NCBI GenBank assembly: GCA_038087875.1
Contig: CM075990.1
Location: forward strand, 1,116,001 to 1,180,000
DNA length: 64,000 nucleotides
Origin: Malacoraja senta
Taxonomy: Eukaryota
Reading direction: 5' to 3'
Part shown: positions 2,774 to 43,958 of the stretch, in pieces
Layout of the letters: the number at the start of each line of letters is the position of its first letter
Position numbering within the stretch: the first letter of the stretch is position 1
Position numbers and translations under genes: made by a program
The notes under the pieces: generated by a model
Databases searched by the model: none
What the model saw: only the letters and a program-made list of their open reading frames with translations
Told to the model about the DNA's origin: nothing

Positions 2774-3403
2774 TGGGAATTTGATGGAAATGCTTTGGGA
2801 GCAGGCATGGACATGAAGGGCCGAATGGCCTCGTGAATCTGAGCATCAGGTTTAGTTCAGTTTAGTTTATTGTCACTTGTACCGAGGCAGAGTGAAAAGC
2901 TTTTTTGTTGCGTCCTATCCAGTCAGCGGAAAGACTAGACATGATTCCAATCAAACCGTCCACAGTGTACAAGTACATGATAATGGGAATAATGTTTAGT
3001 GCAACAAAGGCCAGTAAAGACCGATTAAAGATAGTCCAAGGGTCTCCAATGAGGTAGATGGGTTTTCAGGACTGCTCTTCAGTTGGTGATAGGATGGTTC
3101 ATTTGCCTGATAACAGTTGGGAAGAAACTGTCCCTGAATCTGGAGGTGTGCGTTTTCACACTTCTGTACCTCTTGCCTGATGGGAGAGGGAGTGACCGGG
3201 GTGAGACTGGTCCTTGATTACGCTGCTGGCCTTGCCGAGACAGCGTGAAGTGTAGATGGAGTCAATGGAAGGGAGGTTGGGTTGTGTGATGGTCTGTGTC
3301 TAGGCCTGTGTGATGGTCTGTGTGATGGTCTGGGCTGGCTGGGTGGGTGGGTGGTGGTTTGTCAGACAGTGTGACCCAGACGCCGTCTCCTGTCTCCCCA
3401 CAG

Positions 3404-3531
3404 CCGGCTGTGGACGCAGAGTGGACAATGTGGAGGGAGTCATCACCAGCCCCAACTGGCCCGACCCGTACCCTAACCGCAAGGAGTGTAGTTGGACCAT
3501 CTCCGCACCCCCTGGGCACAGGGTCAAGCTG
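3404..3531 (+). CDS. BMP1/tolloid-like metalloprotease, internal exon (N-half of CUB4)
   Basis: Acceptor ctccccacag and donor gtaaac; 128 nt, phase 1 to 0. Encodes (A)[42 protein letters not shown], matching the tolloid CUB4 start (ITSPNWP..YP..KEC.W.I...PGHRVKL). Confidence 0.95.
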
Positions 3532-4616
3532 GTAAACCCCCGTGTCCGTGCCAACCCCTGGAGCAGGGGGGTAGGGGGGGGGGGAAAGGGGGAGTGTCAT
3601 GTCCCGGACACCTCCCTCCCCCGCCACCGCAGTACCGGCCAGGGCGCAGCACGATCCCACGGACGGGGATGTCCACGTACCTGGCGTCCCGCGGGGAATG
3701 TTCCAGAGGGTCCCTGGGCCGATACTGCGAGCTAGGTCTCTCAAAGGGGCAAGATGGGCACTGTGCCCACATGGGCATGATGGAGGGGGGAGAGACTGCG
3801 GGGGGGGGGGGGGAAGGGGTCTGTAGGAGATTTATCATGGGTGGGGGGAGACCATGTGTAGGGGGCTGTTAGAGATCTGTGGATGGGGGAGAGACCGTGA
3901 GGGGGGGGGGGGCGTTGAGGATCTGTGGGGAGGAGGGGAACGGGGGAAGGTTTGTGATGAGCGTCAGGGCGACATTGGCAAGGGTCTTGTCCGGGGGTGA
4001 GTGGGCGGAGGGCCCATTGGGAGGATGGGTGGGGGTGGCAGAGGGGGTGGGGCACTGGTCAGGAGGAGGGGGGAGGGGATGTCGTTCAATGAGGGGACCA
4101 AGGGTTGTCAATGAGGATCGGGAGAAGAGCGGCACTGTGGCGCAGCGGTAGAGTTGCTGCCTCACAGCGCCAGAGACTAGGGTTCAAATCTGACTATGGG
4201 TGCTGTCTGTTTGGAGTTTGCACGTTCTCCCCTTGACCTGCGTGGATTTTCTGCCGGTGCTCCGGTTTCCTCCGACACTTGAAAGACATACGGGTTTGTA
4301 GGTTAGTTGGCTTGCTTACATTGTAAATTGTCCCTAGTGTGTAGGATAGTATTAGTGTCGCTGGTCGGCGTGGACTCGGTGGGCCGAAGGGCCTGAGCTC
4401 AAACTCCATTTATGTCTGGGACATAAAATTCTAACCACTAATGCGACGCGCAGTAACATTACTGCTGTTGACTCTCGTATAGGTTTCACCCCGCTGATCA
4501 GTAATTGAACACCCATCAATAGACCTGGTTTCATGGGACAGACACAAAGTGCTGGAGTAACTCAGCGGGTCAGGCAGCATCTCTGGAGAAAAAGGATATG
4601 GGACGTTTCAGGAAAT

Positions 4617-7600: not shown

Positions 7601-8250
7601 CCAGGGCTCCCGCAATTTCCTCTCTGGTTTCCCAAAATGTCCTCAGATATATCTAATCAGTTCCTGGAGATTTGTCCACCTTCATACACGATAGTACCTT
7701 CAGTACTTCTTCAATGGTAACACTGACTGCTCTCTAGACACTTCCGTTGACTGCCCCAAGTTCCTCCTTCCTACCGTCTTTCTCCTCGGTAAATGCGGAG
7801 GAGAATTACTCATTGAGGACCTTGCCCTTCTCCTGTGGCCCCATACAGAGGTGACCACTTTGATTCCTGAGAGGTCCCACTCTCTCCAGTTACTATTTCC
7901 CCCCCTTATGTATTTATAAAATCTCTTAGGATTGCCCACAATGCTATCTACCAGAGCTATCTCCTCGCCCCTTTTTGCCCTTCTGATTTACTTTTGAGTT
8001 TGCTCCTTAGTTCCCAAAACTCCTCCAGGGATGCACTTGATCCCAGCTGCCTATACATGTCCCATGCATCCTTCTTGATTTTGACCAACGCCTCAACTTC
8101 TCTCATCTGCCAAGCTTCCTTACGTTTGCCCTTCAGTCTAACAGGGATGTGCATATCCTGAGAGCTTGTCAGCACACTTATAAAAACTTGGCCGAAGTTC
8201 CTTTCCCCTCAAACAACCTGCTCCAAACAACTTGAGCAAGACTTTCTGTC
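4617..8250 (-). mobile_element. Older CR1 LINE (RT region) with a younger CR1 (~5164-6560) nested inside
   Basis: Two sets of CR1 RT motifs: VDVVY(M/L)[34 protein letters not shown]. The inner copy has an (ATAGAAAC)n tail at ~5162-5184. Confidence 0.9.
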
Positions 8251-9117
8251 ATACCTTCAGACTGAAGAAGGGTCTGGACAAAACATCACTAATTGATCTT
8301 CTCCAGAGATGCTGCCTGACCCACTGAGTTACTCCAGCTTTTTGTGTCCATTGTTGGTATAAACCAGCATCTGTAGTTCTGTTTCCGCTGGTTTTACTGG
8401 ATGCAGGTTTTACTTTTTAGCGATACAGTGGGGAAATGGGCCCTTTGGTCCACCGAATCCACGCCTTCCAGCAATCAACCCGTACACCAGCACTATCCTA
8501 CACACACTAGGGACAATTTATAATCCTTACCGAAGCCAATTAATCTACAAACCTGTACAGTAGGTAGACAAAAATGCTGGAGAAACTCAGTGGGTGCAGC
8601 AGCATCTATGGAGCGAGGGAAATAGGCAACATTTCGGGCCAAAACCCTCCTTCAGACGGCCCAAAATGTTGCCTATTTCCCTCGCTCCATAAATGCTGCT
8701 GCACCCGCTGAGTTTCTCCAGCATTTTTGTCTACCTTTGATTTTCCAGCATCTGCAGTTCCTTCTTAAAAACCTGTACAGTATGTCTTTGGAGTGTGGGA
8801 GGAAACTGGAGCACCTGGAGAAAACCCACGTGGTCATGGGGAGAATGTACAAACTCCGTACAGACAGCACCCGTAGTCAGGATGGATCCCGGGTCTCTGG
8901 CGCTGTGAGGCGACAACTCTACCGCTGCCCCACCGTGCCACTTATGTGAGTTGTGGAAGGTGAGGTGGACCTTCTCAACTTCTCCCCGTTAGCTCAAGAG
9001 CGGCTGGATGATGGAAAGATCACTTGGGGTGGAGCCTGGGAGAAGATTGTGGTGGGGAGTTGGTGGTGCCAGGATGGACAGAATCCAAGCTCGGGCTAAA
9101 TGCTTCCACCCCTCTAG

Positions 9118-9331
9118 GCCTTCATGGAGTTTGAAATCGAGCTGCACCAGGAATGTATTTACGACTATCTGGAGGTGTACGATGGTCTCGGCGAGAGGCC
9201 CGCCTTGTTGGGCCGGTACTGCGGCAGCAAGAAACCAGAAACCATCGTCACCACGGCAAACAAAATGTCCCTCAGATTCTTCTCAGACGCATCGGTGCAA
9301 AGGAAGGGATTTCAGGCACAGCACAGCACAG
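9118..9331 (+). CDS. BMP1/tolloid-like metalloprotease, internal exon (C-half of CUB4)
   Basis: Acceptor cccctctag and donor gtgagt; 214 nt, phase 0 to 1. Encodes [23 protein letters not shown]...[10 protein letters not shown]...[20 protein letters not shown] and joins the previous exon in frame. Confidence 0.96.
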
Positions 9332-11982
9332 GTGAGTCACAGAGTGATACAGCGTGGAGACAGGCCCGTCAGCCCAACTTGCCCACACCCACTAACATGT
9401 CCCAGCTACACGAATCCCACTTGCCCATGCTTGGTCTATATCTCTCCAAACCTGTCCATCCATGTACCTGTCAATGTATTGCTATAGCACCTGCCTCAAC
9501 TACCCTCTCTGGCAGCTTGTTCCATATACCCACCATTCTTTGTATAAAGACATTGCCCCTCAGGTTCCTATTAAATCTTCCCCCACACCTTCCTTCTGAA
9601 CCTTCTGAATTTTGTAATCGGCAGGGCAGTACTCTGCATATCGCCAACTTGGACAATTTAACATTTTATCAAGCCAATTAACCTACAACCCTGTACGTCT
9701 TTGGAGTGTGGGAGGAAACCGAAGTTCTCGGAGAAAACCCACGCAGGTCATGGGGAAAACGTACAAACTCCATACAGACAGCACCCATAGTCGGGATCGA
9801 ACCCGGGCCACCGTGACTGTCCCTTCATCAGTTCATATTATATATTGGGCCATTCGGCCCATCAGTTCTACTACACATTTATTGATCTTGAGCTATCTTT
9901 CCCTCTCAACCCCATTCTCCCCATAACCCCTGACACTTCAGCCGATCAAGAACCTGTCGATCTCTGCCTTAAAAATACCCATTGACTTGGCCTCCACAGC
10001 CTATATGTTTAAGGTGCAACTCACAGGGTAAGCACAGTGCTTCAAGTATGGGGCCTTTGTAAGTGTCCAAAAGTAGAATTCCACAGAATTAGTAGAACAG
10101 AGACTGTTGGAAATAATAAGTTATTAGTTCAGTTTAGTTTAGTTAATTGTCACGTGTACCGAGGTACAGTGAAAAGCTCTTTGTTGCGTGTGCACCAGTC
10201 AGCAGAAAGATAATATATGATTACAATCGATCCATTTACAGTGTACAGATACATGATAAGTGAATTATATTTAGTGCAAGGTAAAGCCAGCAAAGTCCGA
10301 TCAAGGCTAGCCCAAGGGTCTCCAAAGAGGTAATTAGTAGTTCAGGACCGCTCTCTAGTTGTGGTGGGATAATTCATTTGCTCGATAACAGCTGGGAAGA
10401 AACTGTCCCCGAATCTGGTGGTGTGCATTGTAATAATAATATAATGATTCTAATTACAATTATTAAATGTAGTATTATTATAATTATACATCTGTTCTTT
10501 CAAATTACACCTGCTGTGTATTTCCAATGTTTTCAATTTAATTTTATTGATGCTTCTGTGTTAGAGTTGCTGCCTCACAGAGCCAGAGGCCCGGGTTCGA
10601 TCCTGACTACGGGTGCTGTCTGTATAGAGTGTCTACGTTCTCCCTGTGACGGCGTGGGTTTTCTCCGGGTGCTTCGGTTTCCTCCCGCATCTCAAAGACG
10701 TGCGGGTTTGTAGGTTAATTGTCCCTCTGTAAATTGCCCCTAGTGTGTAGGGAGTGGATGAGAAAGTGGGATAACATTGAACTAGTGTGAATGGGTGATC
10801 GCTGGTCAGCACGGACTCTGTGGGCCGAAGGGCTTGTTTCTATGATGCATTTCTAAACTATTCATATAGTGTTTTTTCTGCTGAGAACCATGCAGGCTGT
10901 CTGTCCTGTTTAATAGATTCCCCCCTTTCCTCCCTCACACCCCCCCCCCCCCCCTACATTGCCCACCCCTCCCTCTCCTTCCCTGTGCCCCACCTGGATA
11001 CGTACAGTTTTCACCCCCTTACCTAATCTCACACTATTTGTCTTTTCATCTCTGGCCTTTGAACAAACATAGAAACATAGAAACATAGAAAATAGGTGCA
11101 GGAGGAGGCCATTTGGCCCTTCGAGCCCGCACCGCCATTCATTGTGATCATGGCTGATCGTCCCCTATCAATAACCCGTGCCTGCCTTCTCCCCATATCC
11201 CTTGACTCCATTAGCCATTAGAGCTCTATCTAACTCTCTCTTAAATCCATCCAGTGACTTGGCCTCCACTGCCCTCTGTGGCAGGGAAATCCACAAATCC
11301 ACAACTCTCTGGGTGAAAAAGTGTTTTCTCACCTCAGTCTTAAATGACCTCCCCTTTATTCTAAGTGTGGCCCCTGGTTCTGGACATCTGCCAATATACT
11401 GCCCTCCCCTTCCCTCTCCCCCCCCCCTCCCTTCGCCTGTATCCACCTATCACTCGCCTGCCCCCATCTCTCTTCCAGCTTTCCTCCCTCTACCACATTC
11501 AGCCCGACCCGAAACGTCACCTATCCATGTTCTCCAGAGATGCTGCCTGACCCGCTACGTTACTCCAACACTTTGTGTCTTTTTTTTTGTAAACCAACAT
11601 CTGCAGTTCCTTGAGTCTCCACAAATTGACTGATTGATGGATTGAAAGATACAGCAGGGAAACAGGCCCTTCGGCCCATCGACTCCACGCTAACCACTAA
11701 ACACCCACTGGTTCTATGTTATCCCACTTCCTCATCCACTCCCAATACACACTAGGGGGCAATTGACAGAGGGCCGATTAACCTACGAACCCGCACGTCT
11801 CTGGGATGTGGGAGGAAACCGGAGCACCCGGAGAAAACCCACATGGTCACAGGGGGAATGTACAAATTCCACATAGACAGCACCGGAGGTGAGGATGGGA
11901 CCGGGGTCTGTGGCATTGAGAGGCAGCGGCCCTGTGCTGTGGTTATACAATGATGGGTGTGTGTGAGGGGGTAGCGGGGAGC

Positions 11983-12022
<40 letters not shown>

Positions 12023-12046
12023 TGTGTGCCTCTGCTTATGTTGCAG

Positions 12047-12297
12047 AGTGTGGAGGGGAGCTGCGAGCCAGGGTGAGGACTGGAGAGCTGTACTCCCACG
12101 CACAGTATGGGGACAACAACTACCCAGGGCAGCTGGCCTGCGAGTGGCTGATCACGGCAGAGGACGGCTACGCAGTCGAGCTCATCTTCCTCACCTTCCA
12201 GCTGGAGGAGGAGGCCCACTGTGCCTACGACCGCCTGCAGCTGTACAATGGCCCCAACCACAGCGCACCCCTACTTGGCACCTTCTGTGGGGCAGGG
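12047..12297 (+). CDS. BMP1/tolloid-like metalloprotease, internal exon (CUB5)
   Basis: Acceptor ttgcag and donor gtaagg; 251 nt, phase 1 to 0. Encodes (E)CGGELRARVRTGELYSHAQYGDNNYPGQLACEWLITAEDGYAVELIF...FCGAG. LYSHAQ.GDNNYP is characteristic of tolloid CUB5. Confidence 0.96.
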
Positions 12298-13040
12298 GTA
12301 AGGGTCTGGAGAGTGGGGGGGGGTAAGGGCCAGGGAGTAAAGTTCGGGGGAGTGGGGGGTAAGGTTCTGGGGGGGGGGTGTAAGTTTCGGGGGAGTGGGG
12401 GGTAAGGTTCTGGGGTGGGGGGTGGTATGGGTCGGGGGAGTGGAGGGGTATGGGTTGGGGGAGTGGGGGGGGTTAAGGGTCGGGGGAGTGGGGGGAGTAA
12501 AGGTTGGGGGGGTAAGGGTCGGGGAGTGGGGGGATAAGGGTCGGGGGGGAGTTGGGGGGATTGGGGTCCCATGGAGTAAGGAGAGTGGGGGGTGGGCAAT
12601 GCTGGCTCGGGAGGTTCTGTGGGGCAGGGGTACGGGTCCGGGTGGGGGGAGAAGCAAGCATGTAAATGGGCGGGGATGGGTGGCCCCACACGGTGCACAG
12701 TAACGTGGGGGTGGGGAGTGTATCAAGGCCACGGGGAGGGTGGGGCGATGGGACTGAGGGGTTGGGGGGGGTGAGGATCAAGGTCTCTGGGGAGAGTTGG
12801 GCTGATCAGAGTCTCCTGGGGATAGGGGTGGGGGTTGTGGGGCTTCAGGGAGGAGGGGGTGGGATGAACCGAGGTCCTTGGGGAGAGGTCTCCGGGGGGG
12901 GGGGGGGGGTCCCGGTGAGTGTTGAGCGGGTTGGGGCCCTGGGGAGGGCTGAGGGGGATTGAGGTTGGTGGGGTCCAGAGGGGAGGGTGGGGAGGGGTCG
13001 GGAGTGTGGGTCCGGGAGTGTGAGGGGGTTGTGGGATGGG
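12298..13040 (+). repeat. G-rich low-complexity/minisatellite tract in tolloid intron
   Basis: Repeated gggggagtggggggtaaggg-like units. Confidence 0.9.
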
Positions 13041-14103
13041 ACATAAGTGCCGAATTGATGGCCCAATGAATCCGACAGAAGAACCTTCGATCACGAACCT
13101 TTCCATTAGTTTGTTGAATTTATTTGCAGGGTGCAAGTCCGTTCATGCTGCCAATATATAGAGTTACAGAACACGGTACAGGCCCTTCGGCCCACCTTAC
13201 CCTTGTTATCCAAGTTGGCATTCTGGGCTCGTCCCTTATGCCTGTATTTGGCCCATACCCCATCAAATCCTTGCTATGAATACATTTGTCCAAAAGTCAT
13301 CCTTGTACCCACTTCTATAGCTTCCCCTGGCAGCTCATCCCAGATACAGCCCACCCTCTGTGAAAAAGTTGCCCCTGAGCTCCCTCTTAAATCTCTCCCC
13401 CCCTCTTACCTCAAGCCTGAGCCCTCTAGTTTTAGAATCCTCTACCCTGGGAAAAAGATTTTATCTGTGCCCCTCATGATCTTGTACACCTCAATAAGAT
13501 CACCCCTCGGCCCCCGAATCCAGTCGGCGCCTGGTACGCCTCTTCTGCACCCTTTCCATGAGTCTCCACAACCTTCCTGTATTAGGGGGTAAATCCCAGA
13601 ACTCTCCCCCTCCCTCCCTCCCTCCCTCCCTCCCTCCCTCCCTCCCTCCCTCCGTCGCCCAAACTCTCCTACCTCCTGTTCAAACTTTAACACTGGAGTG
13701 ATTAGACTTTAGAGATACAGCGCGGAAACAGGCCCTTCGGCCCACCGAGTCCGCGCCAACCAGTGACCTCATACATTAACACTATCCTACACACTAGGGA
13801 CAATTTACAATTTACAGAAGGCAATTAACCTACAAACCTGCTCGTCTTTGGAGTGTGGGAGGAATCCGGAACACCTGGAGAAAACCCACGCAGTCATGGG
13901 GAGAACGGACAAACTCCACACAGAGAGCACCCATGGTCAGGATGGAACCCGGGTCCCTGGCGCTGTGAGGCAGCAACTCTACCGCTGCGTCACCATGCTA
14001 CCCGATGCACCAGATTTGTAAATGAATGTTTCTGGTGAATCAGACTACGGAAGGTTTCAGTGTGTGGAGGGTTGATCGTGGCTTGGTCCGGGGTGATGGG
14101 TTG

Positions 14104-14140
<37 letters not shown>

Positions 14141-14141
14141 G

Positions 14142-14276
14142 CCCCAGGAGGTGGTCTACTCTGTGGGGAACTCGATGTTGCTGCAACTCCACACTGACGA
14201 CACCATCAGCAGGAAGGGATTCCACGCTCGATACACCAGCACCAAGTTCCAGCACCAGTTACACCCCACGATGTGA
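14142..14276 (+). CDS. BMP1/tolloid-like metalloprotease, last coding exon
   Basis: (CT)n polypyrimidine tract plus ag acceptor. Encodes [47 protein letters not shown], matching the tolloid C-terminus ([17 protein letters not shown]). This frame is not shown in the ORF track. Confidence 0.95.
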
Positions 14277-20364: not shown

Positions 20365-20650
20365 AACAGCACCTCATATTTCGCTTGGGTAGCTTACACC
20401 CTAGCGATATGAACATTGACTTCTCTACCTTCAAGTAGCCCTTGCTTTCCCTCTCTCTCCATCTCCCTCCCCATACCCAGTTCTCCACCCGTCTTGCTGT
20501 CTCCGACTGCATTTTATCTCTGTACCGCCCACCCCCCTGACATTAGTCTGAAGACCTGAAATGTCACCTATTCCTTTTCTCCAGAGATGCTGCCTCACCC
20601 GCTGAGTAACTCCAGCATTGAACCAGTATCTGCAGTCCTTTCCCACACAA
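20365..20650 (+). mobile_element. Penelope-like element 3' end (endonuclease C-terminus plus terminal repeat)
   Basis: LIFRLGSLHPSDMNIDFSTFK* followed by the widespread terminal repeat ...ctccagagatgctgcc...gctgagtaactccagc. Confidence 0.7.
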
Positions 20651-20656
20651 TGTATC

Positions 20657-21262: not shown

Positions 21263-21624
21263 ACTGCCAGGCATCAGTGTCCATGTGTTGATGGGGACAA
21301 TGTGACCACCATGGAGGCAGCAAGTCCAGGAACACTGCACTCTGCACGTCTGTTTCCCCTGCGATCCCATGCACAACATGAACGAAATACCAGAAGTTGT
21401 TTGCTGCCCGATACTGAGCACAGTTCCAGGCACATTGTTCGGGACATGTTGCTGCCTTTACATATGCAAAACATTGTAATAATGTACCAGCACAGCGTTA
21501 CAACTCTGCCGCTTAACTTCCTTCTTGGCTTCCAATTCATCCCTCATTTCACATTTGATTTTCACGTGAGTGGTGTTCACGCTGGGCTGTGTTCTTCAAA
21601 AGCTGCAGCTCCAAGCCCCACACA

Positions 21625-21627
21625 ATG
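21625..21627 (+). CDS. Putative ATG-only first coding exon of the YxN-motif gene
   Basis: cacaATG|gtgagt: A at -3 and a perfect donor directly after the ATG, in unique sequence. Phase 0 matches the downstream exons. Linkage to them is inferred. Confidence 0.4.
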
Positions 21628-21928
21628 GTGAGTTACTGATCATTCCATTGGGCCAATGGTTCGTTATTGCCACATGTGCATCTGTCCAGTGAAATCACTT
21701 GTTTTGCATTATTTTCAGTAATATCTTTACCTCCAAATTTTACTCCAAAGACGTACAGGTTTGTAGGCTAATTAGCTTGGTAAGATTGTAAATGATCCCC
21801 CTGTATGGGGATCACTGTGTGTACTTGTCCTGTTTCTATGCTGCATCTCTAAACTAAACTAAACTAAACTACATAAGCAGAATCACACCATCAGTCTCCC
21901 AGGCTGGGTTAGGGTAATGTCACAAGCG

Positions 21929-22240
21929 GCACGGTGGCGCAGCGGTAGAGTTGCTGCCTCACTGCGCCAGAGACAGCAGTTCGATCCTGACTACGGGTGC
22001 TGTCTGTACGGAGTTTGTACATTCTCCCCGTGACCAAGTGGGTTTTCTCCGGGTGCTCCGGTTTCCTCCCACATTCCAAAGACGTGCAGGTTTGTAGGTT
22101 AATTGGCTTGGTATAACTGTAAATTGTCCCTAGTGTGTGTAGGATAGTGTTAGTGTGCAGGGATCACTGGTCGGCAAAGACTTGGTGGGCCGAAGGGCCT
22201 GTTTCTGCGCTGTATCTCTAAACTAAACTAAACTAAACTA
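21929..22240 (+). mobile_element. tRNA-derived HE1/V-SINE-type SINE, near full length (about 15 further copies, e.g. ~4130, 13705-, 16100-, 28440-, 33025, 34492, 37050-, 47920, 56870-, 60407)
   Basis: tRNA-like head with A box (TGGCGCAGCGG) and B box (GTTCGATCC), conserved central core, CR1-like 3' end (gggccgaagggcctgtttc) and (TAAAC)n tail. Confidence 0.9.
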
Positions 22241-22689
22241 ACAGTAGATTACACTGACGCAGAAGAGTCTCCATGTTTCCGGAACCATCTTGTATCCTTC
22301 AAGATTCGAAGTGTTTAAAAATGTAAAGTCTTAACTTGAATTTGAAGGCCAGTTGCCGTGGCAACGGCACTGGGCTGGAGTTGCAGGGTGGGCCTGGCGT
22401 GCCGATGTTGTCGGTGTTCTCCACCACTGCTCCGCCGCTCCGTGCCGCTGCAGGCCGTGTCCAATCCGCCCGCCCGTCCCCGGCCTCTGTGTGGCCTCCA
22501 GTGGAGCCCGATCCACACGAGCCCCAGGCTGCTGCAGGGCCTCTAGCGGCCTACTCCACCCCACCCCACCTGACCCACAGACCCACCGTCCCCTCGCCCC
22601 CTGCAGCCTCCGCTCAGCCTCCGTGTACCCAGGACCCCTCCCGCAGCCAACCTGAAACCCCCTGCTTGTGGTCTGGGTGGTGATTCATG

Positions 22690-23225
22690 TTCATAAAATA
22701 TACGTGCTGAATTATGTCATTCAGCCCATCAAGTCTACTCCACCATTCAATCCTGGCTGATCTATCTTTCCCTCTCAACCCCATTCTCCTGCCTTCTCCA
22801 CATAACCTCTGACACCCGCACTAATCAACAATCTGTCAGCCTCTGCCTTAAAAATATTCATTGATTTGGCCTCCACCGTCTGTGGCAATGAATTCCACAG
22901 ATTCACCCTCTGACTAAAGAAATTCTTCTTCATCTCTTTTCTAAAGGTACATCCTTTTATTCTGAGGCTATGGGCTCTGTTCCTAGACTCTCCCACTAGT
23001 GGAAACATCCTCTCCACATCCACTCTATCCAAGCCTTTCACTGTTTGGTAAGTTTCAATGAAGTCCCCCCTCTTCCTTCTAAACTCCAGCGAGTACAGGC
23101 CGAGTGCCATCAAACGCTCATCATACGTTAACCCTATAATTCCTGAGATCATTCTTGTAAACCTCCTTTGGACCCTCTCCAATGCCAGCACATCCTTCCT
23201 CAGATATGGGGCCCATAACTGCTCA
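22690..23225 (-). mobile_element. CR1 LINE 3' fragment
   Basis: WAPYLRKDVLALERVQRRFTRMI...LGLYSLEFRR.RGD, the CR1 C-terminal region. Confidence 0.9.
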
Positions 23226-23482
23226 CAAGAAGAACTGATAGAAGTATAGAGATTTCTGAGAGATTTAGATAGGGCGGACAGCCAGAACGTCTTTTCCAAG
23301 CTGATCACATTGAATGGCGGTGCTGGCTCAAAGGGCCGAATGGCCTACTCCTACACCTATTTTCTATGTAAAATGTCAAAGGTTAGAGGGCACAGCTTTA
23401 AAGTGATAAGGGCAAAGTTTAAAGGAGATGTGCGGGGCAAGTTTTTTACACAGTGGGGGCCTGGAAGGCGCTGCCTGGGGCA

Positions 23483-23550
23483 GTGGTGAAGACAGTGGTG
23501 AAGACAGTGGTGAAGACAGATGTGAAGACAGATGTGAAGACAGATGTGAT
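23483..23550. repeat. 12-bp tandem repeat (gtggtgaagaca / gatgtgaagaca)
   Basis: About 5.5 adjacent copies expanded inside a CR1 3' fragment. Confidence 0.9.
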
Positions 23551-23852
23551 AGTGGCATTTAAGCTTTTAAATAGGAATATGGAAATGCAGGGAATGGAGA
23601 GGAATGGATCATGTGCAGGCAGCAGAGATGAGCTTAATTTGACATTGTGTTTGGAGTGGATATTGTGGGCCAAAGCGTTGGATTAACTCAGCGGGTCAGG
23701 CAGCATCTCTGGAGAAAAAGGATGGGTGACGTTTCGGGTCGGGACCCCTCTTCAGTCTAACCTACCCCTGTGCACTGAGGCAAATGGTGGCAAAAACATT
23801 TTTAATTAAAAAGCGTCAATGTGGAGGGCTTGATGCACAGGGGTAGGTTAGA

Positions 23853-23880
23853 CTGAAGAAGGGTCCCGACCCGAAACGTC
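23853..23880 (+). ncRNA. Minimal hammerhead ribozyme motif in a Penelope-like terminal repeat
   Basis: CUGAAGA-A-GGGU(CCCG)ACCC-GAAA-CG-UC: hammerhead core boxes flanking a stem II hairpin. Confidence 0.65.
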
Positions 23881-25147
23881 ACCTATCCTTTTTCTCCAGA
23901 GATGCTGCCTGACCCGCTGTGTTACTCCAACACTTTGTGTCCTTTTGTATTGCATCAGTCCATTTAGGTCTCAGAGTGTTCATTAAGGAGCTGTAGTCAC
24001 CGCGATCAATAGACCACCAGGTAATTCCTCGGAACAAGAGGCCAGATTTACCATGGAAGGCAGCGACTGGCTTTATTTGAATTGGGGCCATTATGCAGCA
24101 ATATTATGAGTCTTAGAGTGATATAGCACGTAAACAGGCCCTTCGGCCCAACATGCCCATACCGACCAACATGCCTCATCTACACTAGGCCCACCTGCCC
24201 GCATTTGGCTCATATCCCTCTAAACCTTTCCTATCCATGCACCTGTCCAAATGTCTTTTAAATGTTATTGAACCTGCTTCAACTACCTCCTCTGGTAGCT
24301 CATTCCGTAGACCCACCACCCTCTGTGTGAAAAAGCTGCCCCTCAAGTTCCTATTAAATCTTTCCCCTCTGACCTTAAACCTAAGGTTCTTGATTCCACA
24401 ATTCAGAGTAAAAGATACTGTACATCCACCCTATCTATTCCCCTCAAAATCTTACACACCTCTATAAATCATCCCTCAGCCTCCTGTGCTCCAGGGAATA
24501 AAGTCCTACCCTGCCCAGCCTCTCCCAACAGCTCAGGCCCTCAAGTCCCGGCAACATCCTCGTAAATCTTCTCTGCACTATTTCCAGCTTCACAACATCT
24601 TTCCGATAACAGGGTGACCAAACCTGGACACAATGCTGCAAATATGGCATCACTCGTTTGCCCAGAGTAGGAGAGGTGAGGTGAGGTAAGGCGGGAAAGA
24701 TTTCATAGGAACCTGAGGGCGTAACTTTTTAAAACAAAGGGTGGTGGGTGTATGGAACGAGTTGCCGGAGGAGGTAGTTGAGGCAGGGACTATTGCAACG
24801 TTTAACAAACATTTGGACAGGTACATGAATAGAAAAGTTTTGGAGGGATATGGGCCAAACACAGGCAAGTGGGACTAGTGTAGATGGGGCATGTTGATCG
24901 GTGTGGACAAGATGGGTCAAAGGGCCTGTTTCCACGCTGAACGATTCCATAACTCTATGACCATCACCTCAATAATTGTGCATGAATAATTATATTATAT
25001 GCAAGTAACAGCTTTGAAAAGTGAGAAGAAATACTATTTTGCAAAACAGTGCGTGCTTTTAGAAAGAAGGGCAGAATAGGGTCAGCGGGAAAACTAGATC
25101 AGCCATGATTGAATGGCGGAGTAGTCTTGATGGGCCAAATGGCCTAA

Positions 25148-25347
25148 NNNNNNNNNNNNNNNNNNNNNNNNNNNNNNNNNNNNNNNNNNNNNNNNNNNNN
25201 NNNNNNNNNNNNNNNNNNNNNNNNNNNNNNNNNNNNNNNNNNNNNNNNNNNNNNNNNNNNNNNNNNNNNNNNNNNNNNNNNNNNNNNNNNNNNNNNNNNN
25301 NNNNNNNNNNNNNNNNNNNNNNNNNNNNNNNNNNNNNNNNNNNNNNN
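25148..25347. other. Assembly gap (200 N)
   Basis: Run of N. Confidence 1.
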
Positions 25348-26263
25348 AACAACGTTTAGTGTAAGATAAAGTTTGCTAAAGTCCGATTAAAGATAGTCCG
25401 AGGGTCTCCAAAGAAGTAGATCCCTACCAGTAGTTTCCCCCTTCTCCTCTACTTTCAGTCTGAAGAAGGGTCCCAACCCATGAAGAAGGGTTACCCATCC
25501 TTTTTTTGCAGAGATACTGCCTGACCCGCTGAGTTACACCAGTACTTTTAGTCTATTTTTGATAAATGGGAGGTGAGGTGAGCGGGGTTGGTGGGGGAGA
25601 GTGGGGGAGAGGGCCACTGAGGTGTGGGGTGTCTGAAATTAGAAAACTGCAACCGGGAGACTCAAGGATGGGCGGGGGAGAGTGGGAGTGGGAAGGGGAG
25701 TAAACAGGAAACGTAAAGCGAGATTGTTGCAGAGTACAGGAGGTCTGCAGGATGGTCACACTGAATGGCTGCACCTCTGACTATACAGCACGGGGAGAGA
25801 GGGGAGAAGAGGAGTGTGGGGGAGAGAGGGGGAGTGTGGGAGGGAGATGTCTGGGAGGGAGAGAGGGAAAGGGGGAGCAGGAGAGGGGCTGCTGCTTCCC
25901 CCCCTGGGGTAACCCCCCCCCCCGGAGAATCCCCCCCTCCATCCCCCACTGGGGCAGATCCCCCCCTCCTTACCTCTCCACACAATTTACATTTATACCA
26001 AGCCAATTAACCTACAAACCTGTACATCTTAGGATTGTGGGAGGAAACCGGAGCACCCGGAGAAAACCCAGGCAGTCACAAGGAGGACGTACAAACTCCG
26101 TACAGACAGCACCCGTAGTCAGATCGAACCTGTGTCTCTGGCGCTGTGAGGCAGTAACTCTACCGCTGTGCCACCATGCTGACCCAAACAGTTTGGTGAA
26201 GATGGATGTGCCTTGACGCACTGCCTCCTCGGTAAATCTAACTGTTTGTTTCCCTTCCTGTAG

Positions 26264-26293
26264 GCTCCGGTTTATGAAAACACAAACCAGCTG
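26264..26293 (+). CDS. 30-nt microexon encoding APVYENTNQL (YxN motif)
   Basis: Acceptor tgtttgtttcccttcctgtag with a branch-like ctaac upstream, and a perfect donor CTG|gtaagt. Symmetric phase 0 with no stop, in a small unique island between repeats. Confidence 0.7.
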
Positions 26294-27921
26294 GTAAGTT
26301 GATAGCCACTTCTTCAGACTGATTTGCGTGATGGTCTGGGCTATGTCCATGACTCTTTGGGATTTCTTGTGGTCTTGGATGTAGCTGTTCCCAAACCATC
26401 CTGTGATGCATCCTGAATAGAGGGTATTAGCTGCATGGAAAGGTTGGCCACACTTGGTTGTTGTCTCTGGAGTGGCAGTGATGGAGGGGAGACCTGATAG
26501 AAGTCTATAAAGTTGTGAGAGAATATAAAATTATGAGAGGTATAGTTTATTGTCACGTGTATAAGGTACAGTGAAAAGCTTTTGTTGCGTGCTAACCAGT
26601 TAGCGGAAAGGCAATACATGATTACAATAAAGCCATTTACAGTGATTCATGATAAGGGAATAACTCTTTACTGCAAGGTACAGCCAGTAACGTCCGATCA
26701 AGAATAGTCCAAGGGTCACCTATGAGGTAGATAGTAGTTCAGCACTGCTATCTGATTGTGGTAGAATGATTCACCCCTGAGTTTCTCCAGCATTTTTGTC
26801 TACCCGTGGTAGAATGATTGATGAGAGGATGATTCAGTTGCCTAATAACAGCTGGGAAGAAACTGTCCCTGAATCAGGAGATGTATGTTTTTTCACTTTC
26901 TATCCCTATTGCCTGATGGGAGGGGAGAAGAGGGAGTGGTCAGTGTGCAACTCATTCTTGGTTATGCTGCTAACCTTGCTGAGGCAGCGTGAGGTGTAAA
27001 TTGAGTCAATGTTAGTTTGTGTGATGATCTGGGCTGCATCTACAATTCGCTGCAATTTCTTGCGGTCTTGGATGGAGCTGTTCCCAAACCAAGCTGTGAT
27101 CCATCCTGATAAAGAATCCATGTCTGAAGAAGGGTCTCGACCCGAAATATCACCCATTCCTTCTCTCCAGAGATGCTGCCTTGTCCCGTTGAGTTACTCC
27201 AGCTTTTTGTGTCTACCATCTATCCTGATAAAATGCTTTGTACTGTGCAGCTGTAGAAGTTGGTGAGAGTTGTAGGGGACATGCCAAACTTCCTAAGCCT
27301 TCCAAGCAAGTAGAGGCGTTGTGTGCTTTCTTGGTCGTTGCTTCAATATGGGTGGTCCAGGAGAAGTTGTTGGTGATATTGACTCCTGGGAATTTGAAGT
27401 TTTCAACCATCTCTACTTCTGCACCGTCAATGCAAACTGGGGCATGTGTAGAGACTTCACTTCCTGAAGTCCATCACTATCTTGCTGACATTGAGAGAAA
27501 GGTTGTTGTCTCCACATCAAGACACGAGGTTCTCAATCTCCATCCTGTACTCCGTCTCATCATTATTTGATATCCGGCCCACAATGGTGGTATCGTCTGT
27601 GAATTTACAAATGGAATTAGATTTGTACATGGCTGCACAGTGGTGGGTGTACAAGGAGTAAAGAAGGGGCTGAGAACACATCCTTGCGGAGCCCACTGTA
27701 TTGAGGATTATCGTGGAGGATGATTTGTCCCCTGATTGGGGTCTGTTGGTCAGGAAGTCGAGGGCCTGTTCCTGTGCTGTACAGTTCTATGTAGGAAGGA
27801 ACTGCAGATGCTGGTTTATAGACACAGAATGCTGGAGTAACTCAGCGGGACAGGCAGCATCTCTGGAGAGAACGAATGGGTGATGTTTCAGGTTGAGACC
27901 CTTCTTCAGACCCTAATGAAT

Positions 27922-27949
27922 CTGAAGAAGGGTCTTGACCCGAAACGTC
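27922..27949 (+). ncRNA. Minimal hammerhead ribozyme motif in a Penelope-like terminal repeat
   Basis: CUGAAGA-A-GGGU(CUUG)ACCC-GAAA-CG-UC. Confidence 0.65.
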
Positions 27950-29835
27950 ACCCATTCCTTCTCTCCAGAGATGCTGCCTGTCCCGCTGAGTTACTCCAGC
28001 ATTGTGTGTCTCTCTCTTTTCATCAGCTTTGCGGGGACAGCTAGACTACTAGGCTTATCACCGTTCAGGAATCTTCTCAAAGGCAATAAATACCAGTCCC
28101 ACCTGTGTTGCCTAGGTCGTGAGAATGAAATAAGCTCAGTATACTTCTGTCAGGAGCTCCCTGCTCTTGCCTTCACTGTCCGAGCCATCAAATGTGTTCC
28201 TCACACTGCGTGCTCCACCATTCCCAGGGGAGCATGAATGTCTATCCCTGGGTCCTCGATATCCCTGGAGCTAGGAGCTGTCCATGCTGGAGGCTGCGAT
28301 GTCCACCAAAACCTTGTGCCAACTCTCTGACATCTGCGTTGACCCTCACTGGTATCACCCTTCCATGCCTGTGGCCATCGTGTGACATGTGACAGCATGT
28401 GCCCACACACACCAGATGACCAGGTCATTCCATTAAACTTTAGAGATACAGCACGGAAACAGGCCCTTCGGCCCACCGAGTCTGCACCGACCAGCGATCA
28501 CCACACACACTAGACAATTTACAATTTTACCAAAGCCAATTAACCTAGAACCCTGCACGTCTTTGGAGTGTGGGAGGAAACCGGAGCAACCCGGAGAAAA
28601 CCCACGCAGTCACAGGCAGAACATACAAGCCAACATACGAACGTACAGACAGCACCCAAGGTCTGGATCGAACCCGGGTCTCTGGCACTATGAGGCAGCA
28701 CTCTACCGCTGCACCACCATGCCTCCCCAAGACCCTTGACTTTGTCACTTTCAACATTGTCAAAACCTGTTTGGGTTTGACATTCTTGATATTCATTCAA
28801 ACTATTAAATCCCTTCTATCTGTTCCTGTCTATAGAAATAGTTCAGGTTCAAGTTCACATTTATTGCCACATGCACCAATTAAGATGCAGTGAAATGTAA
28901 GTTACCATGCAGCCGTACAATCAAAAATACACAATAGAATTGAACAGAAACATCCACCACAGTGGAATCAACATTCTTCACTGTGATAGAAGGAAATAGA
29001 AACATAGAACGGTATTGTCTGAAGAAGCATCCCGACCTGAAACATCACCTATTCATGTTCTCCAGAGATGCTGCCTGTCCCGCTGAGTTACTGTAGCACT
29101 TTGTGTCTTACTGGCACTTGGTTAACCAGCATCTGTAACTTCTTGTTTTCTACATAGAACAGTACAGCACAGGAACAGGCACTTCAGCCCACAATGTCTG
29201 TGCCGAACATGATGCCAAGTTAACACTAATCTCCTCTGCCTGTACATGATCCATATCCCTCCATTCCCTGCATATCCATTGTCTATCTAAAATGCCACAA
29301 TTCTATCTGCCTCCACCACCACCACTGGCAATGCATTCCAGGCACTCACCCACCCTCTAGGTAAAAAAATCCTTTCAACTTTCCTCCTCTCACCCTAACA
29401 CTATGCCCTCTGATCTTTGACATTTTCACCCTGGGAAAAAGTTCTGATTGTCTAGCTATCTATGTCTCTCATACTTTTATATACTTGTATCAGGTCTCTC
29501 CCAAACCTCTGATGCTCCAGAGAAAACAATCTAAGTTAGTCCAATGATTCCTTATAGCTACTAACCCTAAATCAGGCAGCATTCTGGTAAACCACTCTGG
29601 ATCAACCAAAGTCTCCACATCCTTCCTGTAATGGGGCATCCAGAACTGCACGCAATACTCCATATACGGACTAACCATAGTCATATAAAGCTGCATCGTG
29701 ACTTAAACCCTGACCAATGAAGTCAAGCATACCATACGCCGCCTTTACCATTCCATCTACTTATGTTGTCTCTTTCACATATAGACTTGGGCCCTGATCT
29801 CCCTCTATACATCAATGCAGTTAAGGGTCTTACCA

Positions 29836-31220
29836 TCTATCTATCTATATCTATCTATATCTATGTACTATTAAAACTCTGTGTGTGTGTGGATGGATGT
29901 GTGTGTGGATGTGTTTATTTATTTGTGGGTGTCACATTTGGCCTTTGATTCCTTGCTCCGCCAAAACCACACGCGAAAACTCCGCGATTTTTTCCATTGC
30001 GCTAGACATTACACTTTTACATACCCTAACACACTCCTTATTAGATTTAGACATTTTTATGTACACATTTTAAAATAAAATCCATCCCCCCCCCCCCACT
30101 CACTCATTTTGTCTCCTCTTGCTGGCCAGCCACCATAACGGCTGCTGCCGACCGGCTCTGCTCCAAAAACGACGCCATTTTTTTTCTTTTGCTAGCGATT
30201 TTCGCCGCGGGGTCTGAAGCACGTTTGGGGTCCAGTCCCAACGGGTCTGCTCTTGGTCTAGTATAATACTAAAAGTCTCGTCTTGTTTGTCTGTCTGTAA
30301 GATCAAGGAACTACGCCAAAATGGTACACAATAGCTCGAACATTTTTGCAGAATCTTACTCAGCTTTTTCCCGTGGTCGTTAGTATCAAGTTTCTTCACA
30401 TTTGATGTTATATTTCACAAGTTATTGATATTTAAAGTTTAAAAAAGGCAACTGAAAATAATAACTGCCTGTGAGAGTGAGACTTTTCTCGCAGCTTCCA
30501 ATGATGTCACAATGCCATCTCACAGTCGTCCAATCCCAATGGGATCTCACTTACACAAGCTGCCGTGAAGATTCCGAAAACCGAAAATGACATCACGATG
30601 TGATCTCTGCGGCTCTCTGCTGCTGATCTCTGTTGTAAGGAGAGGGACGTGGTGGGGGAGGTTTAAAAGTTTTAAAGTGACATTTAAAAGTTGGATTTCT
30701 TCAAATCTGCACTGGCAGTAAGGCAGTTATGATGTCATAATGCCCTACCAGCTATAATGTTTCCTTCTGAGTCCTTCAGAGCAATAGTCCTTCAGGGAAA
30801 GAATCTGCCAGCCTAACCCAGCACAGCAAAGTTTAACTAAAAGTCTCATCTTGTATGTATGCATGTATGTTGCCGAAATACAGCCAAAACGGTACACAAT
30901 AGTACAACGATTTGGTGGGCGCCTGACTCACCATTTGTCTGCGGTGTGCAGTATCAGGTTTCATTATATTTGGAAAAAAGTAAATCACTTTATAAACTAT
31001 AATGAATGTTATACTGTGAATGGGACAAGATTCAACGTGGCAGTAGCACCTGCGCAGTGCGCTCCCACTTGCCGGACCCGTCAGCTGCGCGTGCGCAGTT
31101 GTGGGAGGGTTGCTGTGCCCGGCGCCATTTTCAAATCGCCATTTTGATCTAATACTTCCATTCTAACTGAACATCTCGGGGATCTCTGGCGTCACAACGG
31201 GGACCCAACGGGTCGTCTAG
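29836..31220 (+). mobile_element. Tandem chain of non-autonomous Helitron-like units
   Basis: TC-rich start; heads acta(tt)aaaactct/actaaaagtct; 3' hairpins cccaacggg followed by CTAG at 30258-30261 and 31217-31220. Confidence 0.6.
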
Positions 31221-31339
31221 TTAACCATATACCTTTCCTTTACATTCGACCTCCCCAGAGTACAGCACCTCCTTTGTTAAGGTGCCACACGTGAGGCTGC
31301 TATGGAAGATGAGAGCCCATGGTATCAAAGGGCGCAAGT

Positions 31340-31861
31340 TGTGAAAGAACACTCACGATGCGTAGAGAATGTAGAGAAACAAGTTTATTTATTAGCAAGT
31401 CTGCAGAGTTGGGTGTCTCCCCTGTCAAGACACACCGAGGATCGGGATGACTTCCATCTTTATACATTTAATGGGTATCATTGTCACACCCTCATCCCTC
31501 CCCATTGTGCTTCTTCCAATCATAACATAAAGCCCACATTCCCACGAGAACGTCCTGGAACGTCCACCCGACGTCAAAGACACCTCCCATATCATGCATC
31601 GCATGTGCATTTAAATGAGACATCTTGTCATAGTGGGTGTGTGTACATATTCATGTAAGTTCATTGCCCATGCGCACTGAGTGTTTCTTGTGACCCTTAC
31701 CCTAGTTCTATGCTGGGCTGTTGCTATCTTCTCTGTTCTCATCCTTGAAAAAGTCACCATCTGTACTTGTCCTTTACTCCCCCTATCCTCCCTACTATAC
31801 TCCCTACTATACAAAGGGTTCTTGTCTAAATCAACTTATACCTATTAACCCCTTTCTCACA
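31340..31861 (-). mobile_element. Solo-LTR-like segment
   Basis: TGTGA...TCACA inverted termini, 522 bp, with a minus-strand AATAAA near the left end. No short TSD. Confidence 0.45.
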
Positions 31862-31894
31862 CTTTACATTCGACCTCCCCAGAGTACAGCACCT

Positions 31895-33020
31895 CCTTTG
31901 TTAAGGTGCCACACGTGAGGCTGCTATGGAAGATGAGAGCCCATGGTATCAAAGGGCAGATACTAGCATGGATATCAGGTTGGCTGGATGGCAGAAGGTG
32001 AAGGGGCCTTTTTCTGTTTGGCTGCCAGTGACGAGCGGAGTTCCACAGGGCTCGGTACTGGGGCTGCTACTCTTCACGTTGTATATTAATCATTTGAATG
32101 AAGGGATTGAAGGCTTAGTTGCCAAGTTTGCGGATGATATGAAAATAGGTGGAGGGGCAGGTAGTGTAGAGAAAGCAGGGATTCTGCAGAAGGATTTGGA
32201 TAGGTTGGGAGAGTGAGCAGACAAGTGGCAGATGGAATATAGTGTAGCAAAGTGTACCATGCTTTTTGGTAGTAGGAATAAAGGCGTAGATTATTTTCTA
32301 AATGGGGAGAGAATCCAGAAATCGGTGCCCAGGGGTTTTGGAAGTGCTGGTGCAGGATTCCCAAAAAGTTAATCTGCAAGTTGAATCAGTAGTAAAGAAA
32401 GCAAACTCAATGCTAGCATTTATTTCAAGAGGGCTGTATACAAATATAAGGATGTAATGCTGAGGCTCTACAAGGCGCTTGGTCAGGCCGCATTTGGAAT
32501 ATTGTGAGCAATTTTAGGCACCATATCTGAGGAAGGATGTGCTGGCTCAGGAGAGGATCCAGAGGGGGTTTACAAGAATGATCCCAGGAATGAGTAGGTT
32601 AACATATGATGAGCAGTTGACGACACTGGGCCTGTACTCGCTGGAGTTTAGAAGAATGAGGGGGGACCTCATTGTAAGGCTTGGATAGAGTGGATGTGGA
32701 GAGGATGTTTCCACTAGTGGAAGAGTCTAGGACTAGCCTCAGAATTAAAGGACGTTCTTTTAGGAAGGAGATGAGGAGGAATTTCTTTAGTCAGAGGATG
32801 GTGAATTTGTGAATTTCTTTGTCACAGAGGCTGTAAAGGCCAAGTCAGTGGATATATTTAAGGCAGAGATAGATAGATTCTAGATTAGTATGGGTGTAAG
32901 AGGTTATGGGGGGAAGGCAGGAGAATGGGGTTAGGAGGGAGAGTCATGATTAAATGGTGGAGTAGACTTGATGGGCCGAATGGCCTAATTCTGCTCCTAT
33001 CACTTATGTACTTATGATCT
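31895..33020 (+). mobile_element. CR1 LINE, 5'-truncated and degenerate
   Basis: [17 protein letters not shown] and AKFADD motifs; ends with the CR1 3' UTR gggccgaatggcctaattctgctcctat. Confidence 0.9.
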
Positions 33021-33460
33021 TATCACAGCGCCAGAGACCTGGGTTCGATCCTGACTACGGGTGCTGTCTGTACGGAGTTTGCATGTTATCCCCCGTGACC
33101 ATGTGGGTTTTCCCCGGGAGCTCTGGTTTCCTCCCGCACTCAAAGGATGTACAGGTTTGATGGTTAATTGGCTTCGGTAAAATTGTAAATTGTCCCTAGT
33201 GTGTGCGGGATAGTGTTAGTGTGTGGGGATCGCTAGTCGGCGCAGACTCGGTGGGCCAAAGGGCCTGTTTCCACGCTGTATCTCTAAACTAAACTGAACT
33301 AAAACGGTAGGGAGGAACTGCAGATGCTGGTTTAAACTAAAGTGCTGGAGTAACTCAGCGAGTCAGGCAGCATCTCTGGAGATAAGGAATAGTTGAAGTT
33401 TCGGGTCGAGACGCTTCTTCAGGCCGTGTTTAATGGAGGGTCCATTCTGCTGTTTTGCAG

Positions 33461-33685
33461 GCGTACAACAACGTGACAAATGAGGCCGTGTACATGAACG
33501 TGGAAGAGGGGAAAGCCCAGCGCTCATGGCAAAACCTGGAGCCCAGATGTACACAGCCTTTCTCCATTCATGCAGCCAGCCCAGTATCTCCACAAGGAAA
33601 TCCATGGCCCCCAATCTCCTCCCCCAAAGGGGGGCAACAACTCCATGAGATGATGTCCACTGGAGCCATCTATGAAAATGTTTAA
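33461..33685 (+). CDS. Terminal coding exon of a tyrosine-motif (YNNV, YMNV, YENV) adaptor-like protein
   Basis: Acceptor ttctgctgttttgcag, phase 0, 74 codons plus TAA. Unique sequence between repeats with three YxNV motifs, ending GAIYENV*. Confidence 0.65.
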   Translation, partial: AYNNVTNEAVYMNVEEGKAQRSWQNLEPRCTQPFSIHAASPVSPQGNPWPPISSPKGGQQLHEMMSTGAIYENV

Positions 33686-36600: not shown

Positions 36601-38566
36601 CCACCCATCTCCACTTCACCCACCCCCTCCATGCCCACACCCCTCCACCCATCCCCCCACGTCTACCATCACCCATCCCCCACTCTTCTACACTCTCCCC
36701 TCCCTCCATCCTCTTTCCCTCCCCCTCTGCACCTCCTCCCCCTTTCCTCCCTCCTCCCGTCGGCCCGTCGCTCCCCAGTCCCCGTTGATTCACCACATCC
36801 CCTGTGCCTGCCCCAGTCCCTTCCCCCAGGCAGGGTGCATGGGGTGATTGCCACATTCAGGTCACTCCACGGATGAGGAAGTCAGTAGTGGAACAATAAA
36901 GCCGTGTTGTGAAGCGGCCGTGGTCTTGTCCAGTCTCTGGGGGCTGGGGGTGGGGGGTCAGCATCTCCGGGTCCTTGTCCCATGGTCTGAACCTCTGGCT
37001 GTGAGGGGCTTCACTGAGTGTCTCACACCGAGGGGCTCCGTGACTCTTTAGTTTAGAAATACAGCGCTGAAACAGGCCCTTCGGCCCAGCGCGTCTGCAC
37101 CGACCAGCGATCCCTGCACATTAACACTATCCTACTCACATTAGCCTACAAATCTGTACGTCATTGGAGCGTGGGATGAAACCGGAGCACCGGAGAAAAC
37201 CCACGTGGTCACGGGAGAACGTACATACTCTGATCAGACAGCACCCATAGTCAGGATTGAACCCGGGCCTCTGGCACTATGAGGCAGCAACTCTACCGCC
37301 TGGCCACTGTGCTGCCCGCTGCTCCTATGCCTGGATCTCCTGCCCGTGTGGGGACTGTGCGGGGTCCACACGGTGCCCATGGAGCTGACGATCGGCCAGA
37401 GCTCGGCACTGCTGGCTCTGTACAGGCACACGGACACAGGGAGACGGGGGGATAGTGGGTCACAGGGGGGATTAGGTAAACCCAACATTATGTTCAGCAC
37501 GGACATCGTGGGCCGAAGGGCCTGTTCCCGTGCTGTAGTGAAATATTTCTATAAGCCTGGCACGACCTGAATGTGGACTCTCCTTTAGAGTGATCCCACT
37601 GGGACAACTTCAATTCAGTCACGTAACTGGAACGTCATAGAGAGATACGGCACAGAAACAGGCCCCTTCAGCCCACCAAGTCCACCCTGACCATCCACAA
37701 TCGGTAGAACCACGGCCTCACAGCCGCCAGAGAACTCAGGATCGTTCCTCACCTCGGGTGCTGTCTTTGTGGAGTTTGTACATTCTCCCTATGACCATGT
37801 GGGTTTCCTCTAATGCTGTATCTCTAAATTAAATTAAATTTTAAAACATTAAACCCATGTACACTAATCCCTCATTAATGTAGTCCAACATTGTTCTCTC
37901 CATGTTGTCGCCATTTAATATAATTTACAGAGGCCAATTAACCCACAAATATGTACACAAAGTGCTGGAGTAACTCAGTGGGTTTAGGCAGCATCTGAGA
38001 ACATGGATAAGTGACATTTCAGGTCAAGACCTTCTTCAGACTGACTGTGGGACGAGAGGGGCAGAAGATGGAAGAGAAGGGGGACAGGACAAAGCCTGTT
38101 GAGTGATAGGTGGATACAAGTAAAGAGGGTGGTTTGATAGGTAGATGGCTGGTGAAAGGCCAGAGATGAAAAGACAAATAGTGTGAGAAGGATAGAAGAG
38201 TGAATGGTGAAGCCAGAGGAAGGAATATAGATGGAAAGGGAGGGGGAGGGGAGAAACGGGTGTGGGTCCTCGTGGGGGACAGAGAAGGGGGGGGAGGGTG
38301 GAGGGTAGAAGGGGGCGGTGGGGTGGGTGTAGTTCGTAGGTTAGTTACCTACAGTAAAATACCATCATAGCATTGATCCCTGTTCATACCGCTGCTCTGC
38401 AGAATATCAGGTGCTGTTCCTCCAGTTTGCATGCAGCCTCATTGTGACAGTGGAGGAGGCCCAAGACAGAAAGGTCAATGTAGGAATGGGAAGGGGAGAT
38501 TGGCAACCAGGAGATCCATTAGGCCTTGGCGCACGTGTTCAGCGAAACGGTCTCTGAGTCTACACT

Positions 38567-43872: not shown

Positions 43873-43958
43873 GTCTGTAAGCGGACCACCTGTCCTTTGG
43901 TCAATGGCGGCAGAGGCCGACTCGTCTTGTCGAACCATTTCTTTTGAACGTCACGCTT

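Follow-up and report, generated by a model that had tools for sequence, protein, structure and literature searches.

A likely three-exon gene directly behind TLL2

We investigated a 64,000-nucleotide stretch of the skate Malacoraja senta (assembly GCA_038087875.1, contig CM075990.1, positions 1,116,001 to 1,180,000 of the forward strand), called the window below, which contains a small three-exon coding gene, present or former, directly behind TLL2 and on the same strand. The gene order is TM9SF-family exons, which we take to be TM9SF3, followed by TLL2, the three-exon gene and a lipoxygenase, presumably ALOX5, which starts at 73 kb in window coordinates with a PLAT domain and further exons. 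TLL2 was recognised from its exon at 9118-9330, which has 96% identity to Leucoraja erinacea TLL2 as the top of 306 matches. The features of the locus are listed in Table 1.

Table 1. Features of the three-exon gene and its surroundings, in window coordinates
Feature	Position	Strand	Remarks
TLL2, last exons	3403..14276	+	own stop at 14274-76; AATAAA at 15579 and 15607
Single-copy island, likely promoter and 5' untranslated region	21270..21624	+	one ETS core (21517), three E-boxes, no TATA box found; promoter function presumed
Exon 1, coding part (start codon alone)	21625..21627	+	good Kozak context; phase-0 donor GTGAGT
Assembly gap of 200 N in intron 1	25148..25347	.	true size unknown; likely site of the absent N-terminal and transmembrane exons
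Exon 2, 30 nt	26264..26293	+	phase 0-0; first YxN motif (YENT); pyrimidine tract and AG before, GTAAGT after
Terminal coding exon	33461..33685	+	74 codons and TAA; acceptor of tract and AG
First AATAAA 3' of the stop	36895..36900	+	3.2 kb from the stop; possible poly(A) signal; within the inverted duplication

As modelled, the three exons would join into a product of 85 amino acids with tyrosines at residues 5, 13, 22 and 82, all four of them with asparagine at position +2 (YxN), and the protein ends on the last motif. The terminal exon contributes YNNV and YMNV, a Pro/Ser-rich spacer with PVSP and two PxxP motifs, and the C-terminal YENV. All exon junctions are phase 0, and an in-frame stop at 21556-58, 22 codons 5' of the ATG, fits a 5' untranslated region. 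Each of the three islands is single-copy, its only match in the 1.94-Gb genome being itself. An earlier note on this DNA had claimed these three exons with their coordinates, phase 0, strong splice sites and unique sequence, as well as the 85-residue product with a Pro/Ser spacer and all its tyrosines in YxN, and on each of these points our results agree with it.

The strength of the splice sites was estimated over 20.6-33.5 kb with an approximate vertebrate matrix. The donor at 26293 ranks first and that at 21627 third among 755 GT sites, while the acceptors at 26264 and 33461 rank third and fifth among 810 AG sites, and of all AG..GT exons in the interval the 30-nt exon scores best. Exon 1 is the least secure of the three.

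We then estimated how often such an arrangement is expected by chance. Of the 25,455 tyrosines in the 464 kb around the locus, 4.1% carry asparagine at +2, and across all six frames of this region no open frame other than the last exon has three YxN motifs within 75 residues; ten shuffles of the 464 kb gave 3 three-YxN frames in total. Unique sequence within 746 kb contains 146 strong acceptors, of which only 1 opens a three-YxN frame, and the sole short symmetric exon with strong sites at both ends is the 30-nt exon, the bearer of the fourth motif. The thresholds of this 746-kb test were picked post hoc, just below the scores of the candidate, and the test overstates the case because the candidate had already been seen. 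An acceptor in phase, a stop right behind the last motif and a second exon with a motif are not plausibly a random combination, and we therefore regard the locus as a coding gene, present or former.

No Pfam family matched the last exon (E up to 10) or seven nearby frames; the LAT (PF15234) and LAT2 (PF15703) models gave no match to the last exon, and genome searches with both missed the locus. We found no second copy in the genome, and no comparable YxN exon was seen within about 28 kb downstream of the two other tolloid genes. Some candidates from other collections were rejected: a profile search of 1.84 billion representatives returned one match, a 990-residue bacterial-type surface repeat protein whose score was summed over repeats and which missed the motifs, the PDB gave one row at E 0.89, and the metagenome collection one locus aligned over 16 residues of the Pro-rich spacer.

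The gap in intron 1 and the presumed missing membrane span

The intron-1 gap lies 3.5 kb past the ATG and 0.9 kb ahead of the 30-nt exon. Another 200-N gap is found 3.7-3.9 kb 5' of the window, within the TLL2 region (G000:C14, about 1,112,063-1,112,262). Only TLL2 residues 567-964 remain after this gap; residues 1-566 (566 of 964) are absent from the scaffold, and searches of the rest of the genome, one of them with a stricter first look, did not find them. TLL2 appears 5'-truncated in the assembly but whole in a related skate, and the last exon of the presumed TM9SF3 was apparently lost in the same gap.

The 85-residue model has no hydrophobic stretch (best 19-residue hydropathy −0.12), no myristoylation signal and no membrane-targeting signal of any other kind; hence any anchor would need to be supplied by sequence outside the model, and the gap lies in the intron where it would be expected. 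The model also lacks a juxtamembrane CxxC palmitoylation motif, which would sit in the missing exon. A single hydrophobic window is present in unique sequence (31681), without good splice sites. No further good exons were found in the unique intron islands at 22327-22690, 28021-28431 and 29933-31861. The second of these islands, a 411-nt block in intron 2, carries a strong acceptor at 28027 without a good donor, and could act as an enhancer or provide another end to the transcript.

Because intron 1 contains a gap, and a like gap hides over half of TLL2, the 85-residue model is probably incomplete, its N-terminal and membrane-span exons having likely been lost in the intron-1 gap. The earlier note had described the product as a lineage-specific or very divergent phosphotyrosine scaffold with Grb2-type motifs. 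That there is an unannotated coding fragment is upheld both by the chance estimates and by two related organisms (B and C, below), in which the frame is open, but a complete gene of 85 residues has become doubtful in view of the gap and the analogous case of TLL2. Neither this gap nor the slot beside TLL2 that is held by OPALIN in human had been considered in that note.

A proposed Grb2-docking adaptor and the alternatives

With moderate confidence, we read the three exons as the start codon of a small single-pass transmembrane adaptor together with its tail on the cytoplasmic side; the exons for the N-terminus and the membrane span would lie in the gap. Transmembrane adaptor proteins (TRAPs) cross the membrane once, with a short ectodomain outside and a tail with tyrosine motifs inside, as outlined in passages of PMC3342071. 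The skate tail agrees with this in its several tyrosine motifs and its lack of an enzymatic domain, and it matches no Pfam family. The passages on known adaptors count five YxN motifs in NTAL (PMC2196071), four in GAPT (PMC3342071) and three distal ones in LAT (PMC3291652). By analogy with these proteins, a Src- or Syk-family kinase would phosphorylate the tail after receptor triggering, and each phosphorylated YxN would dock the SH2 domain of Grb2, GADS or GRAP. The four sites could then be cross-linked via Grb2-SOS1-Grb2 into clusters that signal to Ras-ERK, as modelled for trivalent LAT, for which the modelling passages of PMC3291652 give a valence of at least three as permitting branched Grb2-SOS1 clusters. 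The default guess for the cell type, from the motif class, would be leukocytes. The LAYNNV at the exon 2-3 junction is ITIM-like (immunoreceptor tyrosine-based inhibitory motif) and could recruit SHP phosphatases, while PVSP is an ERK consensus site and could give feedback. The tail is likely disordered.

By its position behind TLL2, the skate gene is possibly the orthologue of OPALIN. In human, the order is BLNK, DNTT, OPALIN, TLL2 (from a table in PMC11339866). OPALIN has six exons and encodes a type I membrane protein of about 143 residues with its span at 31-51, according to passages of PMC5113975, PMC2396630 and PMC6400977. Its tail carries putative tyrosine and MAPK sites, and the protein is termed mammal-specific (passages of PMC5113975, PMC2396630, PMC6400977, PMC11317624 and PMC8060510); its knockout is described as having little phenotype in the corresponding passage of PMC5113975. 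The skate gene stands next to TLL2, as OPALIN does. OPALIN presumably lies on the strand of TLL2, with an exon 1 that codes for the ATG only and with all introns in phase 0; if this structure holds, the gap falls where OPALIN exons 2-4 would be and the full length would be about that of OPALIN. Birds and reptiles also have database entries under the name OPALIN, and these would make the restriction to mammals less secure and the finding less new. A wider scenario, which we put forward tentatively and judge rather more apt to fail than to hold, is that the skate gene preserves an ancestral OPALIN, a Grb2-docking membrane adaptor that has stood in a BLNK-DNTT-TLL2 block since early jawed vertebrates, and that mammals later stripped it of its YxN motifs and moved it to myelin.

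In the literature covered, from which Aruga 2007, Yoshikawa 2008 and Golan 2008 were missing, no description of the skate gene or of a non-mammalian OPALIN was found. One search for LAT/Grb2-type transmembrane adaptors in cartilaginous fish (shark) gave no paper either, and PMC4358222 and PMC7918048 were rejected as name matches only (Opalina, Opalinski).

Several results weigh against the adaptor or its place in the OPALIN block, and the most important of them comes from the comparison with organisms B and C. For these, DNA contigs running across the intron-exon border were used and the terminal exon only was compared. In favour of the gene, this exon is in both without indel or premature stop, and the acceptor and the stop codon are kept. 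B shows 5 differences (4 nonsynonymous) and C shows 10 (9 nonsynonymous, or 8 if codon 42 changed along its alternative path), which fall on 11 distinct places, 10 nonsynonymous versus 1 synonymous (9 versus 2 along the alternative path). None of the 11 is on the Y or N codon of a motif, but this has a P of 0.40, and the corresponding P for the motif zones is 0.18. A ratio of nonsynonymous to synonymous change (omega) of 0.3 or less was rejected (P 0.006-0.03) and neutrality was not, on 163 nonsynonymous and 49 synonymous sites. The orthologous exon had been proposed in the earlier note as a check, and the outcome is divided: the frame is intact in B and C, but the sparing of Y and N is not significant and the exon taken as a whole shows no purifying selection. 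Nine of the 11 differences lie in the spacer (codons 23-60 of 74), and the third motif is changed in B from YMNV to YMNM, a CD28-type Grb2/PI3K motif. This pattern is what a fast-evolving disordered tail would show and, just as well, a drifting relic, and it is the main result against function.

The other results on this side concern the motifs, the anchor, the homologues and the flanks. In just 1 of the 4 motifs is the tyrosine preceded by an acidic residue among the four positions before it, whereas typical Syk/ZAP-70 sites have such residues. Between 15.6 and 33.5 kb, the assembled sequence contains no transmembrane exon. With the last exon as query, word-based searches of annotated proteins found no homologue, giving 0 matches among near-length proteins and 0, from 2 candidates, among longer ones. 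In the same collection, the control TLL2 was retrieved from skate, two rays, several sharks and chimaera; since cartilaginous proteomes are in the collection and gave no match, the skate annotation holds no form of the protein that is visible to these searches. The nearest Atlas cluster is LAT2/LAT-like (140 residues, chordate), with a weak score of 0.79 that is below lead level and is reached by a third of shuffled proteins, and the unnamed Atlas clusters gave no usable match. On the downstream side, the next gene is a lipoxygenase and not DNTT, and the DNTT/BLNK flank of OPALIN was not found. A search of the assembly for DNTT gave no match to the palm model, and a search with a polymerase mu-like exon returned only itself; the thumb model matched polymerase beta and the polymerase mu-like gene, not DNTT. 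With DNTT not located and a lipoxygenase in its place, the OPALIN synteny is therefore one-sided.

Four other explanations were considered. The 85-residue model could be complete as it stands. It would then be a disordered phosphotyrosine scaffold in soluble form, gathering Grb2 into cytosolic clusters with no anchor to a membrane. We regard this as unlikely: the three exons do form a continuous frame, their splice sites are strong and the Kozak context is good, and the assembled sequence offers no further good exon, but the model has no membrane-targeting signal or folded domain, intron 1 contains the gap, and the YxN adaptors described in the passages of PMC3342071 and PMC2196071 are all membrane-anchored. 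A similarly small probability is given to a decaying relic, that is, a former adaptor gene that drifts neutrally in skates with its frame and motifs still spared. The 10 nonsynonymous places against 1 synonymous and the rejection of an omega of 0.3 suit such a relic, as do its absence from the annotated skate proteins and the rearrangement signature just downstream. It is opposed by three lineages free of stops and indels, by splice sites that are still top-ranked and by the concentration of the differences in the spacer, fast spacers being usual in immune adaptors.

The exons could also be the tail of a larger receptor, of the immunoglobulin superfamily or similar, with all ectodomain and membrane exons in the gap and an ATG exon that may or may not belong to it. 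Gaps in this region can hide a dozen exons, and receptors of this kind typically have short phase-0 exons in the tail that carry ITIM-like and YxNM motifs. Against this, a first exon that codes for the ATG alone cannot supply a signal peptide, and a multi-domain receptor would more likely have been annotated in skate proteomes and be reachable via the last exon; we consider this origin quite improbable. Highly improbable, finally, is a chance arrangement, or a set of read-through exons of TLL2. In 4.64 Mb of shuffled sequence, 3 three-YxN frames do occur and the 746-kb thresholds are post hoc, but chance would also have to place a strong acceptor in phase, a stop right behind the last motif and the fourth motif in another exon that is itself top-ranked. 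Read-through is compatible in phase, the last TLL2 intron being phase 0 as well, but TLL2 ends in a stop and poly(A) signals of its own and, as a secreted protein, would have no use for SH2 motifs.

We thus retain the single-pass membrane adaptor as the preferred reading of a skate gene that is real, unannotated and of a known functional kind, and that is probably incomplete as modelled. Skates and sharks are the oldest animals with adaptive immunity, and their adaptor inventory is poorly known because transmembrane adaptors evolve too fast for homology detection; the gene is a concrete candidate that is missing from current protein collections. If it is the orthologue of OPALIN, the mammal-only statement would be overturned, OPALIN being neither mammal-specific nor myelin-born, and a myelin protein would obtain a testable origin. 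Should it prove to be no more than an unrelated, fast-evolving adaptor, the gene would be a useful but ordinary addition.

Neighbouring sequence and comparison with known systems

Directly 5' of the putative promoter, a short-period ACCCACTG-type tandem array occupies 20648-21260. Downstream of the gene, the lipoxygenase is flanked by an inverted duplication of about 2.4 kb with 79-90% identity, between 36015-38365 of the window and L018 (window-relative about 157,511-154,621). The two inverted copies share an identical block of about 200 nt, near 36,040-36,243, which has splice-like signals on both strands; no Pfam match was found for it. The duplication is possibly an inversion scar, a product of gene conversion or a duplicated exon of unknown nature, and it may mark a rearrangement just downstream of the three-exon gene. 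An isolated 62-nt exon-like element at 57632-57693 (+), with strong splice sites, lies in unique sequence between the gene and the lipoxygenase and has no Pfam match. The window also contains long retroelement frames on the minus strand, at 52849-55275 (808 residues, presumably part of an L1-like ORF2) and 49518-51509 (663 residues, presumably part of a CR1-like ORF2), with broken pieces at 41200-45600 that we take to be Gypsy-like. The polymerase mu-like gene lies elsewhere in the assembly, at G000:C2288 (L069-L097), beside exons that we presume to be NUDCD3- and CAMK2B-like.

Among known systems, OPALIN resembles the skate gene in being the first gene behind TLL2 and, on the proposed reading, in encoding a small membrane protein, its own tail bearing putative tyrosine and MAPK sites. 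It differs in being described as mammal-specific and oligodendrocyte-expressed, the passages that describe it mention no YxN cluster, and the skate gene is followed by a lipoxygenase and not by DNTT. With SCIMP, TRIM and SIT, single-pass adaptors of about 145 residues, the gene shares short exons, and with CD28-type tails the YMNM motif of organism B, which is the CD28 motif; the protein searches gave no sequence match to any of these, and they occupy other loci. LAT, LAT2 (NTAL), LAX1 and GAPT come close in their short non-enzymatic tails with several YxN motifs and in their small exons, and the nearest Atlas cluster is of this type. LAT, LAT2 and GAPT have other genomic neighbours than the skate gene, which also differs from LAT and LAT2 in having no match to their Pfam models; its assembled part shows neither a membrane span nor a CxxC, both of which may lie in the gap. 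LAT and NTAL have 11 exons, according to the passage on gene structure in PMC2196071, against 3 visible in the skate gene, the last of which holds three motifs in 225 nt; further exons may be hidden by the gap. Because the Pfam test failed, we do not file the gene in the LAT/NTAL/GAPT family; by analogy it would be LAT/NTAL/GAPT-like in function, not by sequence.

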